DNA of 64,000 nt, from the sequence record MN445185.1, one strand, 5' to 3'. Position numbers and translations under genes: made by a program. Below, piece by piece: positions 1,520 to 43,980 of the stretch. Source of the DNA: Escherichia phage vB_EcoM_EC001. The notes beneath the pieces are model-generated. The model was not told where the DNA came from. It searched no databases and saw nothing but the letters and a program-made list of their open reading frames with translations. Positions within the stretch are counted from its first letter, which is position 1. The number at the start of each line of letters is the position of its first letter.

Positions 1520-2832
1520 TGTCGTTTGGTCGGTTACAACAGATGGCGAACGGTCACATCGCTAATGCTCGGGGGTTACCGGCTATCGACTACGGGATAT
1601 TCCTCACGGTACACGGTGCCCCAGTGACGGTGTTGAAGATGCTGTCTATCATTCACACCGGTCACTTTACGCGTGATATCTGTTTATTGACACATCTCAC
1701 CTTGGCTATACCCTACAGCCACATGCGAATGATCACGTCGTCCGCAGAAGGGGATTTGAAGGTAAAGCTGTTATTGCGTCGTGGACAGAAAATCGCGGGG
1801 GTCTTTAACTACCGCGGCATCGTGATAAATAACCGCGACCACAACGCGGAAACACCGACGATGTTCTTGAGTCAGTCTGATGAGAAATCTATCGCTTTGG
1901 TAACATTGGAGCTGATGGATGAGTCGATGTGGTTCCTGCGTAATCGTCAAGTGGGCGGCATCTACCACGAAACAGATGGGTTAACAGTGGCACGCTCGAT
2001 ACTGGCGGATACGTTGCCGGAAGGGGTGGCTGCAGAGGGGCAGTTGAAAGGGATTGAATACGATGAAGAAGAACAGCAGGCATATCGGGACATCGTTATA
2101 CCAGACTCCGAAGACTTCTTAAGCGTGTTTGATTATCTGCAGAACCATTACGGTGTTTACAGCAAAGGTATTGGGGTCTTCCAATACCTACAACGTTGGT
2201 ATCTGTATCGACCTTGGGACTCGTTGAAGTTTAATAACACAACGAAGCCTAAACTGGTCATTTATAACTTGCCTCGTGAACAGGCTGCTCACATTGACCG
2301 CACCACCGATATCGCGGGTAATGTTATCTATCTGATTTGTGGCGGCGACACCAGTAGTTTGGAATACCGTGACCAGACCGCGCTTAACCAGGGTACGGGT
2401 TACCGGGTAGGGTCTGTACGTGTGTTGGATGGGCGTAGTAGTTCATTTACGCCTGGCGACATCAGTATGACCACACCTGATAAATTTGTGGCACAGGCCG
2501 ACCCTGCTGCGTATCCAGGTGGTGTGGTTAACGCACCAATCGATCCTGATAAGCACTTTAGCGATACCGATAAGCCGCAGCGGTCTAAACTGGAGATGGG
2601 TCTGGGTACGATTGTGCAAACAACCTGGAACCGTTCAACGCACGGCATCCTATATCCTGGTATGCCAGTAAAATACGTTTTTGCCAACGAGTATGGGGTC
2701 TATACCCGCTACGGCACGTTGGTGGGGGAGGTGTTCCAGTCTGCTATCGACGGTCAAACGATGGCGTCCGGGCGCTATAACACCCAATCTCAACTGAGCC
2801 TTTGGCTCAAAGATGAAAAATTTACAGCTTAG
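1519..2832 (+). CDS. hypothetical phage protein (possibly virion-associated)
   Basis: 437-aa ORF; start overlaps upstream stop (TAATG). Confidence 0.65.
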   Translation: MSFGRLQQMANGHIANARGLPAIDYGIFLTVHGAPVTVLKMLSIIHTGHFTRDICLLTHLTLAIPYSHMRMITSSAEGDLKVKLLLRRGQKIAGVFNYRGIVINNRDHNAETPTMFLSQSDEKSIALVTLELMDESMWFLRNRQVGGIYHETDGLTVARSILADTLPEGVAAEGQLKGIEYDEEEQQAYRDIVIPDSEDFLSVFDYLQNHYGVYSKGIGVFQYLQRWYLYRPWDSLKFNNTTKPKLVIYNLPREQAAHIDRTTDIAGNVIYLICGGDTSSLEYRDQTALNQGTGYRVGSVRVLDGRSSSFTPGDISMTTPDKFVAQADPAAYPGGVVNAPIDPDKHFSDTDKPQRSKLEMGLGTIVQTTWNRSTHGILYPGMPVKYVFANEYGVYTRYGTLVGEVFQSAIDGQTMASGRYNTQSQLSLWLKDEKFTA

Positions 2833-2875
2833 TCATCTAGTATGACCCGTAAGTAACCTTAAGGAAAATATTGCA

Positions 2876-3673
2876 ATGAAAGCGATTCACACCTTTCGCA
2901 TGACCGGCCAAACTGTTCTCGACATTGATGCGTATGAAGCCGCTAACTTCACCAAACCGACCAAGCTCTGGGATCGCTTGGTTAAGGTACTGCCGCAAAG
3001 CGGTGAGGTGCAGTTGGATTTTGTCATGGCATCGACGTTGGATAAAACAGTGGCAGTTATTTATACTGCTGACGGTGTGCAGAGTAAGAAGGACCTGGCA
3101 ATCGAAGATAAAGGCGGGCTGGGTTATCACTTGTTCCTGCACTGCGTAACCACTGCACCGATTTCAGCTGCGCTGGCGGGACAGTACGGTTTCGCGAATG
3201 CGTATTTCCTGGCACAGAAACTCGCCGTGAATGTTATTCCGGGTGACGTGACCACTTACCCTGAATACGTACAGCGTATCCTGCCAGAGCACTTCGCTGC
3301 AGACGACTACGATTTCAACGTGTTCCGTTTCGCATTGATCGGCGAATCGCGCGATCCAGAATACACCGTTGGCTTGCGTGCCTGTCTGCGTCACTCCGTT
3401 ATCTCTTCGGATGAAGGGATGTCGAATAACGTGAACGAAGTGTTCCCGATGATGCAAGTCGGTCCGTATATCACTTTCAACTCGTACATTCCGTTCCCGG
3501 CACAGATTCTGCCGCCGCAGAACGATAACAGTGTACTGCCAATCGCCGACAAGTATTCACTGCGTGCGAGCGAAGCAGTTGAAGTGATTAACGATCGTCG
3601 CTTTACATTGTCAGTGACCAGCGGCATCAGTGAACCGGAAGTTGCGGTCTCTCAGAGCCTGGATTTGATGTAA
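2876..3673 (+). CDS. hypothetical phage protein
   Basis: 265-aa ORF; AAGGAAAA ribosome-binding site upstream; followed directly by terminator. Confidence 0.65.
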   Translation: MKAIHTFRMTGQTVLDIDAYEAANFTKPTKLWDRLVKVLPQSGEVQLDFVMASTLDKTVAVIYTADGVQSKKDLAIEDKGGLGYHLFLHCVTTAPISAALAGQYGFANAYFLAQKLAVNVIPGDVTTYPEYVQRILPEHFAADDYDFNVFRFALIGESRDPEYTVGLRACLRHSVISSDEGMSNNVNEVFPMMQVGPYITFNSYIPFPAQILPPQNDNSVLPIADKYSLRASEAVEVINDRRFTLSVTSGISEPEVAVSQSLDLM

Positions 3674-3680
3674 AAGTGTG

Positions 3681-3715
3681 CCTGGTCTCCTTGTGAGACC
3701 AGGTCTCTTTATTTT
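3681..3715 (+). terminator. rho-independent terminator
   Basis: stem CCTGGTCTC/GAGACCAGG followed by TCTCTTTATTTT. Confidence 0.8.
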
Positions 3716-3717
3716 AG

Positions 3718-3820
3718 CCCTCTAAACGCACTCACAACCTTCTAAAGCCTCTCTAACGGTAGAACGACCCTCTAAAGTGATAAAAGCTCTCAAAACGCGT
3801 TTGAGAGCGTTATAGAGGGT
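3718..3820. repeat. iteron-like cluster: four direct copies of CYYTCTAAM plus a 9-bp inverted repeat GCTCTCAAA/TTTGAGAGC with 5-nt spacer
   Basis: copies at 3718, 3738, 3748, 3768; inverted repeat at 3786-3808; sits between terminator and promoter-like element. Confidence 0.55.
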
Positions 3821-3838
3821 ATACTCTGAATAAAAATA

Positions 3839-3867
3839 ATTTCAGATATATATTACCTAGGTGATAG
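3839..3867 (+). promoter_or_regulatory. conserved promoter-like element, variant A (ATTTCAGATATATATTACYTAGGTGA)
   Basis: one of three near-identical ~80-bp copies (also 32871, 52661) ending in a conserved ribosome-binding site and ATG. Confidence 0.55.
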
Positions 3868-3915
3868 AAGACAATCTATCAACTCAATCGACTATTAATC
3901 TAAAGGAGTATTGCC

Positions 3916-41095: not shown

Positions 41096-41793
41096 TGGCT
41101 AAGCAAAAGAAACCCCGTAACAAAAAGTATAACCCAAAAGCTGCTACAGAGCGTACAGCGCACACCATCGCTGAAAACGCGCTGAACCGCATCACCTTTA
41201 TTGGCAGCTCCATTCGTCGCCTCGGACCGTACGCGGGCCGTGGTTTTCACTTTACGGCAAGTCCTCGTATTCGTGCTATCGCCACAGATATGTTAGTCGG
41301 TGGGCTGTTCGACCAACCGCGACCATGGCATCTTTGGGTGATGCACCTCACTGAACTCGACACCGGTGAAATTGTAACAGAAACCGCAGTTGCCACACTT
41401 GACGATTATACTTTGGCGGACTTCTGTGAACACGCTGAGAAGTTAGTTAAATCGCTACGTCCTGAACAGGAAGAAGGGAAATATTTCGGTTATGCGTTTG
41501 TGGCCGCCCCGAACGAGCGGTACGACTTCAAAGCGGAAGAAGACCAACTCATTGAAAACTTCATGCATTCTGGACTACTTGATACGTCGTTACATCTGTC
41601 GGAAGAACAACAGTTCGTTAGTCGTGCAGAAATGGCCAACCTGCTCGTTGGTTATACTCGGAAGTTTGACGTGACCGTTGAACACGTCAAAGAAGTACCA
41701 GAGATTGTGAGCAAGAAAGACGAGGTGGTGCTTCCGGTTGACGAGGTTGTCAGTAAAGTAGCGACTGCGATAGGGGCAACGGGGGATTACTGA
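41095..41793 (+). CDS. hypothetical protein
   Basis: 232-aa ORF, start overlaps upstream stop. Confidence 0.55.
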   Translation: MAKQKKPRNKKYNPKAATERTAHTIAENALNRITFIGSSIRRLGPYAGRGFHFTASPRIRAIATDMLVGGLFDQPRPWHLWVMHLTELDTGEIVTETAVATLDDYTLADFCEHAEKLVKSLRPEQEEGKYFGYAFVAAPNERYDFKAEEDQLIENFMHSGLLDTSLHLSEEQQFVSRAEMANLLVGYTRKFDVTVEHVKEVPEIVSKKDEVVLPVDEVVSKVATAIGATGDY

Positions 41794-42002
41794 TGAATCT
41801 ACGTTGGCCGATCGCGGCTGCTGTGTTGTTTTGTATTTATATCGCCATCAGCACCAGTACCCGCACTGCAGAACGTCGCGAGACCGCAACCAGTACGTTT
41901 AGGATGTGCATTGACCGCGTAGACCCGAACAGTACCACTTATCCTGACGCGGTGAACGCGTGTCGCAAAGCGGTTGCTGAGATATTGAAAGAGGAAAAAT
42001 AA
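41793..42002 (+). CDS. small membrane protein
   Basis: hydrophobic N-terminus WPIAAAVLFCIYIAIST. Confidence 0.45.
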   Translation: MNLRWPIAAAVLFCIYIAISTSTRTAERRETATSTFRMCIDRVDPNSTTYPDAVNACRKAVAEILKEEK

Positions 42003-42229
42003 TGGAAAACCTTACGCCGATTGAGATAGTGGCGCTATTCGACCGTTACGTATACGGACAAACGCAGGCAAAGAAAATGCTGGCGATTGCGCTACGTAAT
42101 CGATATCGTGCCAATAAACTCAACGTAGTGGACCGTATGTCGGTCCACAAACAGAACCTTTTAATAGAAGGTCCAACAGGCACGGGTAAAACGGCGTTGA
42201 TGCGTGAAGAAAAACAGAAACAAAAGTGA
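42002..42229 (+). CDS. truncated HslU (ClpY)-like AAA+ ATPase N-terminal fragment, 75 aa, ending just after Walker A
   Basis: gap-free manual alignment to E. coli HslU residues 1-70 gives about 33/70 identities, including GQ..AK, AIALRNR and GPTG.GKT; no Walker B or later motifs follow; own AGAGGA ribosome-binding site. Confidence 0.7.
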   Translation: MENLTPIEIVALFDRYVYGQTQAKKMLAIALRNRYRANKLNVVDRMSVHKQNLLIEGPTGTGKTALMREEKQKQK

Positions 42230-42237
42230 GGTAAAGG

Positions 42238-43245
42238 ATGGCGAAGCTCGTTTCGTTTTCAGCAGGGTTGGATTCCACCTGGATAATGTATCAGCTGCTA
42301 TGCAAAGCACCGGCCAATGAAGCACGACATGTCCGTCCTGCGTATTTCTCCATGTGGAATGGAGGTAACGCGAACTTCATGGAAATTCTTTGTAGCGTGG
42401 CCATTGTTGAACGGTTGATGGATAGACACCATGCACAAACCGAACATGTTACATGGGCGGTGCTCGGGGAAGAGAACTTCCAGCCTGTCGTTACCGCTGG
42501 ATATGCTAACGGCTGGTCGCCTCTGGTTCAGCAGGGCAATGTTGTTAACGGTCTCGCTAAACTGATGTGTGGTATTACGCGCAAACAGCACCACGCCTAT
42601 GCAGTTGTTGGTTGGAATAAGCTAGATGCGTTGGAGAATAGTCTAGAGCTGGGAGATTGGACATTAGACGAGTACGCTCGCTTAAAGAACCTCTATAGCG
42701 AATTGATGTATTTCCAAGATCATGCCGGTCGCGTTCCACCGCTTCTAACACCTGCGTGGGATAAAGAGAAACTGGAAATGTGGCAGGAGTTGCCGGAAGA
42801 TATTCGTAGGTTGGTACAGGTCAGTAACAACAACAACTACGAATTCGCGATAGACCGTGAGAATAACGTGCTCATCGTTTATGCCCATCCGTCGGCAAAG
42901 TCGCAGAATTATCGTAGTCTTGGTATTACACCGTCAGTGGGATGGGAGATTAAAATCAACGATGCTTACAGACGGGTATGGTGTTCTGCTCTCGGTAGTG
43001 CTATTTCTGCTATGGGTTTGGGCGTACCGGCTTTTGCTAACTTTAAGGACCCGGAAAGAAACCACACGACCTTTACGGTAAGTGAAGATACTAACCGGTT
43101 ATGTATCACATCGTTTACCGCGGAAGAGTGGTGCGCGTATGCGCCACATTTTAAAGCGCTTCAGGAGAAAGAAAAAGAGATAGCGAAAAATGCCAAAGCA
43201 AGTAAAGCTGTGGACGCTCCAACTGGCGAAGTGGCGGATAGCTGA
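42238..43245 (+). CDS. PP-loop ATP pyrophosphatase-like protein (tentative)
   Basis: N-terminal SFSAGLDST resembles SGGxDS PP-loop; AAGG ribosome-binding site. Confidence 0.35.
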   Translation: MAKLVSFSAGLDSTWIMYQLLCKAPANEARHVRPAYFSMWNGGNANFMEILCSVAIVERLMDRHHAQTEHVTWAVLGEENFQPVVTAGYANGWSPLVQQGNVVNGLAKLMCGITRKQHHAYAVVGWNKLDALENSLELGDWTLDEYARLKNLYSELMYFQDHAGRVPPLLTPAWDKEKLEMWQELPEDIRRLVQVSNNNNYEFAIDRENNVLIVYAHPSAKSQNYRSLGITPSVGWEIKINDAYRRVWCSALGSAISAMGLGVPAFANFKDPERNHTTFTVSEDTNRLCITSFTAEEWCAYAPHFKALQEKEKEIAKNAKASKAVDAPTGEVADS

Positions 43246-43573
43246 AAAACGGAATTTGCCAAAGCTGGATATAACGGTTAAGTCGGGGCTGAAATATTTG
43301 GCACCCGACTGGGACTTTCTGATGGACTACAAGAAGTCTGACAAAGGCCCCGACGCAGAAGCTGCGTATACCAAACGCTACCTGCAGAAACTTAGTCGGT
43401 TGTTTGATGAAGACACTGATAAGTTGATAGAGATTCTCCGCCAGGGCGAGGTCGTACTAATGTGCTATTGCCCACCGGGGAAATTCTGTCATCGCCACTT
43501 GCTAGTTTCTTACCTTATTGAAATCGGTGAGTGGTTCGGTTATGAAGTAATTTACATGGGCGAGTTATCGTAA
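43190..43573 (+). CDS. small protein with CxC...CHRH motif
   Basis: VLMCYCPPGKFCHRHLL; I weakly recall a similar Cys/His pattern in the DUF488 family; start uncertain because of 56-nt overlap. Confidence 0.35.
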   Translation: MPKQVKLWTLQLAKWRIAEKRNLPKLDITVKSGLKYLAPDWDFLMDYKKSDKGPDAEAAYTKRYLQKLSRLFDEDTDKLIEILRQGEVVLMCYCPPGKFCHRHLLVSYLIEIGEWFGYEVIYMGELS

Positions 43574-43584
43574 GGAGAGTCCTC

Positions 43585-43980
43585 GTGAAATTGATTATGC
43601 CTAAAACCGTTCCTAATCAGGATATGGTTACGACTACACTGTTTTCTGAATCATTACGCAACTCTGTACGTCAGACCGCTTCACGTCTAGACGTGGCAGT
43701 TGAAGAACTCGACCCAGAAGTCTTCATGAAGTATGCGTTTATTGCAGAAGGTTACGCGATCGCCCTGAGTTATGCGCGGTATGTCGATGACGTGACAGAA
43801 GCTAAACGTTATTTAGAAGGCTGTTGTCAAGTTTTCCGTGAAGAAATCACCGAGATGGAGATGGTTGACCGTGGCTTACCTGAATTTGTAAAGGTGGGTT
43901 ACGATAAGCTGTTGCAATCCATCGCGGATGAGATCAAACGTCGCGGGTTAACTGTTGTGCACAGTGCTACACTGCACTAA
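43585..43980 (+). CDS. hypothetical protein
   Basis: AGGAG then GTG; 131 aa. Confidence 0.5.
   Translation: MKLIMPKTVPNQDMVTTTLFSESLRNSVRQTASRLDVAVEELDPEVFMKYAFIAEGYAIALSYARYVDDVTEAKRYLEGCCQVFREEITEMEMVDRGLPEFVKVGYDKLLQSIADEIKRRGLTVVHSATLH

Follow-up and report, generated by a model that had tools for sequence, protein, structure and literature searches.

Small phage inhibitors of host ATP-dependent proteases are exemplified by PinA of T4, directed against Lon, and CIII of lambda, directed against FtsH, both of which are conserved dedicated genes and not fragments of the family that they target. Proteins of the HslU type are found in bacteria (TIGR00390; PDB 1G4A) and also in phages, where gp116 of Erwinia phage RAY was described as an accessory, non-core protein of the HslUV family in nucleus-forming jumbo phages, localising inside the phage nucleus (Prichard et al., 2023, PMC10299810). 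The ORF studied here, of 75 codons, lies at 42002-42229 of a stretch of 64,000 nucleotides from Escherichia phage vB_EcoM_EC001 (MN445185.1; hereafter the window), which is DNA of a SPN3US-like (Seoulvirus) jumbo phage. Residues 1-69 of its product, including Walker A, are like those of bacterial HslU, and only 15% of the bacterial protein is present in it. With the intact phage ATPase of family phrog_4339 it shares the genomic slot, the start, the ribosome-binding site and residues 1-68, whereas it lacks residues 69-586 of that ATPase and carries seven foreign residues at its C-terminus. RAY gp116 is a distant homologue of this intact parent (31.8% identity over the AAA+ parts), and it is full length and nucleus-localised, while no comparable trait is known for the remnant. 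The ORF is similar to PinA and CIII in its small size and in the function hypothesised for it in a preliminary description of the DNA, but it differs from them in being absent from sister phages and in gathering disruptive changes. The results presented here indicate that the ORF is very probably the scar of a deletion and has no function, being a pseudogene remnant of chimeric make-up in which the start of a phage hslU-like gene is joined to the end of another gene, g148. The parts of the locus in the window are the following:

41793-42002, plus strand: upstream gene of 210 bp (69 aa), phrog_28359, function unknown
41990-41995, plus strand: Shine-Dalgarno-like AGAGGA, 6 nt 5' of the remnant ATG
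42002-42229, plus strand: remnant ORF, from ATG to TGA, 75 aa
42002-42195, plus strand: hslU-derived segment, codons 1-64 and 2 nt of codon 65, delimited by sequence comparison
42170-42193, plus strand: Walker A motif GPTGTGKT, codons 57-64 of the remnant ORF
42196-42204, plus strand: deletion junction, the 9-nt microhomology GTTGATGCG, seen as the overlap of two BLAST segments
42205-42229, plus strand: g148-derived tail, comprising the third base of Arg68, the seven codons of EEKQKQK and TGA, delimited by comparison with g148
42230-42237, plus strand: native spacer between g148 and g1008, GGTAAAGG, which holds the ribosome-binding site of the next gene
42238-43245, plus strand: downstream gene of 1008 bp (g1008; 335 aa), phrog_8825, function unknown

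The product of the ORF, MENLTPIEIVALFDRYVYGQTQAKKMLAIALRNRYRANKLNVVDRMSVHKQNLLIEGPTGTGKTALMREEKQKQK, was placed by means of NCBIfam, PHROGs and PDB sequence searches. When it was compared with all PDB chains by phmmer, the top match was E. coli HslU (1g4a_E, E=4.9e-14), and ClpX came second. Residues 1-69 of the remnant aligned with residues 1-69 of E. coli HslU with zero gaps and 33/69 identities (48%), which agrees with the gap-free alignment and the manual count of about 33 of 70 given in the preliminary description. The best NCBIfam family was TIGR00390 (hslU), matched at model positions 1-65 of 441 with E=1.9e-16 and with 60 bits, below the family cutoff of 362 bits; the Pfam matches were to generic P-loop families, all of them sub-threshold. 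The phrog_4339 profile was matched at positions 2-70 of 552 with E=1.9e-31. The likeness of the ORF to HslU is far above chance, and the ORF is a fragment of a phrog_4339 member, not a protein of member length.

What the remnant keeps of the AAA+ large subdomain is roughly a third, with two N-terminal helices, strand beta1 and the P-loop. The N-terminal helices and the Walker A P-loop (GPxGxGKT) of HslU are present in the ORF, which is without the pore-1 loop GYVG, Walker B, sensor-1, the arginine finger, sensor-2, the I domain and the C-terminal HslV-docking tail, so that beyond its N-terminal segment it fails everything by which a functional HslU is recognised. In the intact parent the pore-1 loop, Walker B, the sensors and the arginine finger sit at residues ~90-95 and 402-568, and the remnant ends at residue 75. 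The absence of Walker B, sensor and HslV-docking C-terminus had been pointed out from the sequence before and stands; the stop after Walker A is also real, although it comes 11 codons past the Walker A threonine and not 8, a trivial difference. A peptide of this composition cannot act as an ATPase and, as far as the alignment to HslU allows it to be judged, is unlikely to fold.

As previously proposed, the next gene, at 42238-43245, is without relation to HslU. It is intact in the window, is present in every allele examined and bounds the variable locus as a conserved flank on the right. Its 335-aa product starts with MAKLVSFSAGLDS, in which SFSAGLDS resembles the PP-loop motif SGGxDS, and zero Pfam matches were obtained for it. 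The 3' end of this gene is overlapped by 56 nt by a gene of the DUF488-N3a family (43190-43573, plus strand, E=7e-12), and the region 43585-43980 is also variable among the relatives, with three additional small genes in MET_P1_082_240 and SPAsTU.

A 5-kb query around the ORF matched 36 phage records, nearly all of them Seoulvirus (Salmonella and E. coli jumbo phages), the best match being Escherichia phage vB_EcoM_Lh1B (97.6%). In MET_P1_082_240, SPLA3 and 1252 the identical slot is occupied by an intact hslU-like gene of 1761 bp (2502-4262 in L003, 2303-4063 in L004 and 2303-4063 in L005), the products of which are WFG41614.1 (586 aa), WNT47929.1 and XAN61431.1, respectively. The hslU-derived segment of the window is 92-96% identical at the nucleotide level to the 5' ends of the hslU-like gene in L003 and L004, where it is intact, and residues 1-68 of the remnant are 97-100% identical to the full-length phage protein, A11V being the sole difference from the 586-aa protein compared. 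Past these shared 68 residues the 586-aa protein goes on with ...LMRVLKTKFGLPVLELDMTAFTESGYVGREV.... The ORF had been taken for a fragment of the host unfoldase; its source is instead this divergent phage-lineage gene of phrog_4339.

The start of the remnant is also that of the intact gene. The TAA of the upstream gene (42000-42002) shares one base with the remnant ATG (42002-42004), as TAATG, and the same one-base overlap precedes the intact hslU-like gene in MET_P1_082_240, SPLA3 and 1252. The equivalent Shine-Dalgarno sequence before the full-length gene start in L003 is AAAGAGGAAAA, and the SPN3US-type allele L002 has one at this position as well; on this comparison, the Shine-Dalgarno-like sequence of the remnant is inherited from the ancestral full-length gene.

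The intact protein belongs to phrog_4339 (E=1e-147, profile positions 2-527 of 552) and aligns to residues 1-109 and 242-414 of E. coli HslU with E=2e-48, scoring 207 bits against the TIGR00390 cutoff of 362. The motif GPTGTGKT was unchanged in 4/4 intact alleles aligned or translated. Unlike the remnant, the intact ATPase has the GYVG pore loop, an I-domain-like insert of ~290 aa, the Walker B motif VVFLDEFDK, a sensor/arginine-finger region and a C domain. It departs from bacterial HslU in its much larger I-domain region, where the ~290 residues (~110-401) stand in place of an I domain of ~134 residues in E. coli HslU, and in its C-terminus: the alignment ends at residue 414/443 of E. coli HslU, leaving the last ~29 residues, with the HslV-docking tail, unmatched. 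Since the docking region is unmatched, the intact phage ATPase may not work with HslV.

Full-length homologues with 43-73% identity were found in the Erwinia jumbo phages Machina, Huxley, ChrisDB, Caitlin, Wellington, Kwan and others, and in the Salmonella phages SPAsTU, STsAS and pSal-SNUABM-04. Phages of the CR5 type, from Cronobacter, matched over about half of the HslU-like protein, and phages of the RAY type gave a more distant match. In SPAsTU, a more distant Seoulvirus, the gene is syntenic, lying 5' of the homologues of g148 and g1008. The occupation of the same slot in relatives, the synteny in SPAsTU and the full-length homologues in other genera indicate, therefore, that the full-length hslU-like gene is the ancestral state.

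The intact gene is followed by g149 (486 bp, 161 aa) and then by g148 (333 bp, 110 aa). The label 'head maturation protease' of g149 (L003 4342-4827; gp149 in SPN3US) comes solely from phrog_7478, and its homologue in SPAsTU is named 'virion structural protein', so the label is doubtful. The possibility that g149 encodes an HslV-like partner was also considered and discarded, as it gave zero Pfam/NCBIfam matches and is lost independently of the hslU-like gene.

Comparison with the intact alleles allowed both breakpoints to be mapped. In the window, positions 1-412 of the SPLA3 reference are followed directly by positions 2832-3881, the two segments overlapping by 9 nt. The left side in the intact allele reads ...AAAACGGCGTTGATGCGGGTACTG... 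(hslU codons 63-70), the right side ...GCTAAGTTGATGCGTGAAGAAAAACAGAAACAAAAGTGAGGTAAAGGATG... (the 3' end of g148 and the start of g1008), and the junction in the window ...AAAACGGCGTTGATGCGTGAAGAAAAACAGAAACAAAAGTGAGGTAAAGGATG.... The intact alleles carry one copy of GTTGATGCG at hslU codons 65-68, encoding (A)LMR, and a second near the 3' end of g148, encoding (K)LMR; the window retains a single copy. About 2,428 bp are absent from the window, namely hslU codons 69-586, the whole of g149 and codons 1-100 of g148. The ORF of the window is consequently a chimera of HslU(1-68) and the EEKQKQK of g148, joined in frame, with its start and ribosome-binding site from hslU and its stop, the spacer and the downstream ribosome-binding site from g148. 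The C-terminal end of g148 is ...AKLMREEKQKQK, followed by the stop, and the tail at 42205-42229 is identical to the g148 3' end in L002, L003 and L004.

No remainder of the gene was found in the window or, for remnant carriers, in the phage collection. In a tblastn search with the intact protein, no part of the hslU-like gene other than the N-terminal piece was detected in the 64-kb window, and of g149 and g148 the same kind of search of the window recovered a 10-residue g148 tail. When residues 75-586 (512 aa) were searched by tblastn against the phage collection, matches of at least 95% were obtained solely in the three intact Seoulvirus alleles. The same 228-bp ORF was present in Lh1B, JN03 and SPLA1a, and a scan of IMG/VR with the junction sequence returned two loci, one of which was the native g148 end of SPN3US.

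The remnant very probably arose in a single step. In the ancestor, a cassette of the hslU-like gene, g149 and g148 stood between the 210-bp and 1008-bp genes, and one illegitimate recombination, or replication slippage, between the copies of GTTGATGCG removed ~2,428 bp. Five 9-mers common to hslU and the downstream segment were observed, against ~6 expected by chance, and the deletion used one of several available microhomologies; since shared 9-mers occur at chance frequency, the junction needs no special explanation. As (L)MR is encoded in frame by each copy of the 9-mer, an open ORF of 75 codons was left, and with the stop of g148 retained the ribosome-binding site of the next gene remained untouched. 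The frame is open because an in-frame LMR of hslU met an in-frame LMR seven codons before the g148 stop. The preliminary description was right that the ORF keeps a ribosome-binding site and an intact frame, but neither is evidence of selection, the one being inherited from hslU and the other resulting from a chance in-frame join.

The state of the three genes in the related phages was as follows:

MET_P1_082_240 and SPLA3: hslU-like gene intact (1761 bp), g149 present, g148 present
1252: hslU-like gene intact, g149 absent, g148 present
SPN3US and SPFM19: hslU-like gene absent, g149 present, g148 present
Proteus phage 7: hslU-like gene absent, g149 absent, g148 present
SPLA5c, SEGD1 and SaP7: hslU-like gene absent, g149 present, g148 absent

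At least four deletion classes are present at the locus, the junction of the window and three others, D1, D2 and D3, which combine differently among the phages. In D1 (SPN3US, SPFM19, Proteus phage 7, SPLA5c, SEGD1 and SaP7) hslU was lost after codon 12 via GCGCTATT, leaving an unannotated ORF of 28 codons, MENLTPIEIVALLTLGYMDLILTPLIIE, ended by a stop. In D2 (1252 and Proteus phage 7) g149 was lost via an AACCC-type microhomology, and in D3 (SPLA5c, SEGD1 and SaP7) g148 was lost exactly at ATGA. The genes g149 and hslU were lost independently of each other. The D1 remnant of the SPN3US type is, like that of the window, the leftover of a microhomology-mediated deletion in the same hslU-like gene, but it has an independent breakpoint, 12 hslU codons, and both g149 and g148 kept. 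Nucleotides 36-204 of the remnant are wholly missing in the SPN3US-type phages and are therefore dispensable. Repeated loss of the hslU-like gene in Seoulvirus fits with the accessory status of RAY gp116. Moreover, synonymous SNPs in the first 204 nt are common to remnant and intact alleles, with all four combinations observed, which points to recombination among the phages or to recurrent deletion.

Eleven fragmentary SPFM matches were considered as a further allele and rejected, as they come from scrambled database records. In these 11 GenBank records (e.g., LR535908.1, SPFM10) the sequence consists of blocks of ~60-70 nt, each in the forward orientation and with the block order reversed; the records look as if they had been deposited with reversed line order, in which case the gene calls on them would be meaningless.

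Three features by which a deletion-derived pseudogene is recognised are found at this locus: an intact syntenic orthologue, two mapped breakpoints and independent loss in sister lineages. The first of the two possibilities raised in the preliminary description, a decaying remnant, is supported by the intact gene in the same slot, the mapped deletion junction and the continuing erosion of the remnant described below. The second, a mini-protein with an acquired function, which would for instance hinder HslU or ClpX of the host or some other AAA+ machine, is unlikely. It could find support in the good Shine-Dalgarno-like sequence and in the start overlapping the upstream stop, but the start, the ribosome-binding site and the stop are all explained by inheritance from the two parental genes. 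A separate mini-ORF does not exist in phages that carry the intact gene, and sister phages with the D1 allele retain just 12 codons, so that conservation across related phages, as displayed by inhibitors of host AAA+ proteases, is not found. Judging from the HslU alignment, the AAA+ core is short of four of its five strands, which makes a native-like fold or entry into a hexamer implausible.

The variation within the remnant also bears on this point. Variants were drawn from public assemblies (NCBI, ENA, Logan) by exact-protein look-ups, and 17 distinct protein variants were obtained on >100 contigs. The ORF was open in most of these carrier contigs, which speaks for a functional mini-protein and against a scar, although an ORF of 75 codons would often stay open by chance at such divergence. 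The first helix was changed by A11S/T and L12P/S, with L12P in the commonest variant; the most widespread variant was A11S/L12P/T59R, in which a proline enters the first helix and T59R falls in the P-loop. The Walker A threonine was lost in the variants T64A and T64M, and further substitutions were R68C, D44Y, Q22P, L4H and M46H/S47T. Two different +1 slips in the A-runs of the tail, giving ...TETKVR and ...QKQKVR, were tolerated as well. At codons 45-47 (42134-42142) of L015, L022, L023 and L026 a cluster of five changes, CGT ATG TCG to CGA CAT ACG, points to a multi-nucleotide mutation or to conversion from an allele outside the sample. In L025 (1660-1740; Logan ERR7015395), a secondary deletion via GCACG, equivalent to window positions 42185-42311, takes away the remnant at its 3' end together with ~47 codons at the start of the 1008-bp gene; seen on a single 8.4-kb contig, this deletion may be an assembly artefact.

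The ratio piN/piS was 0.23 for the 68 codons of the remnant in the carriers and 0.07 for the same 68 codons in the intact alleles, both estimates being of low power owing to shared synonymous diversity and polymorphism; the values were 0.04 for the upstream 699-bp gene, 0.10 for the upstream 210-bp gene and 0.27 for the downstream 1008-bp gene. The remnant value, being below 1, could be read in favour of a mini-protein, albeit in a low-power test. Remnant-specific changes had an N:S of ~7:5 and those of the intact gene 32:72, an excess short of significance (Fisher p=0.10, with small counts and low power). Both comparisons lean in the direction of relaxed constraint, and the disruptive variants point to decay, in small numbers. 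The power of these tests is low because much synonymous diversity is common to remnant and intact alleles, through recombination or old polymorphism. Taken over the related phages, the several deletion classes together with the substitutions, frameshifts and one secondary deletion amount to random decay at the locus, the very observation that the preliminary description had named as speaking against an expressed mini-protein.

It is also improbable that the peptide has no role and that putative translation of the ORF is kept to deliver ribosomes to the downstream 1008-bp gene, in which case in-frame termination 8 nt before the ATG of that gene would be a selected feature. The native stop, spacer and ribosome-binding site of g148 did survive the deletion, both frameshift variants end at a TAA that lies 3 nt from the ATG of the following gene, and in D3 alleles g149 takes the position with its stop overlapping the ATG of the 1008-bp gene. 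Nevertheless, ~80 nt separate hslU and g149 in the intact alleles, so tight coupling is not general in the cassette; the downstream gene has its own Shine-Dalgarno-like sequence, and the L025 variant breaks the arrangement.

Two further proposals are highly improbable: that the HslU(1-68)::g148(C-terminal 7) fusion is translated and co-opted for a host or phage AAA+ machine, or that the cassette was lost as an adaptive module. If co-option were true, the widespread A11S/L12P/T59R changes would represent adaptation to the new role and not decay; if adaptive loss were true, the absence of hslU-g149-g148 could serve, for example, host range or defence evasion. Finally, an assembly or sequencing artefact (frameshift or misjoin) and a recent capture of host hslU can both be dismissed, given the identical junction in dozens of independent assemblies besides the independent GenBank genomes Lh1B, JN03 and SPLA1a, and an identity of 48% to E. 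coli HslU against 94-100% to the full-length gene of the phage lineage.

The chimeric pseudogene remnant is, then, the reading retained. Any peptide made from it would probably be an unstable fragment without a role, and the ORF is a gene remnant of an ordinary kind; that it is a new regulator is improbable. Gene remnants left by microhomology-mediated deletions are a well-known kind of feature, and this ORF is already public under misleading names. For Escherichia phage vB_EcoM_EC001 the exact 75-aa protein is recorded under the name 'putative heat shock protein', and it also occurs on ~240-kb contigs in Salmonella assemblies; the names given to the ORF in GenBank/UniRef are 'putative heat shock protein', 'ATP-binding protein' and 'HslVU ATPase subunit'. 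In many assemblies of Salmonella and E. coli isolates, near-complete genomes of such phages, of ~240 kb, were seen as contigs, which suggests frequent carriage of these phages with bacterial isolates, or contamination of the isolates by them.

These results bear mainly on annotation, in which the ORF should be marked as truncated, a remnant that does not belong among phage chaperones or proteases. The locus also provides a small and clean example of accessory-gene loss in nucleus-forming jumbo phages: four classes of deletion, all mediated by microhomology and reshuffled among Seoulvirus phages that circulate together, mark the HslU-like ATPase, g149 and g148 as individually dispensable. The near-isogenic phages with and without the hslU-like gene that exist in nature could be used as a means for probing the function of the intact HslU-like ATPase.
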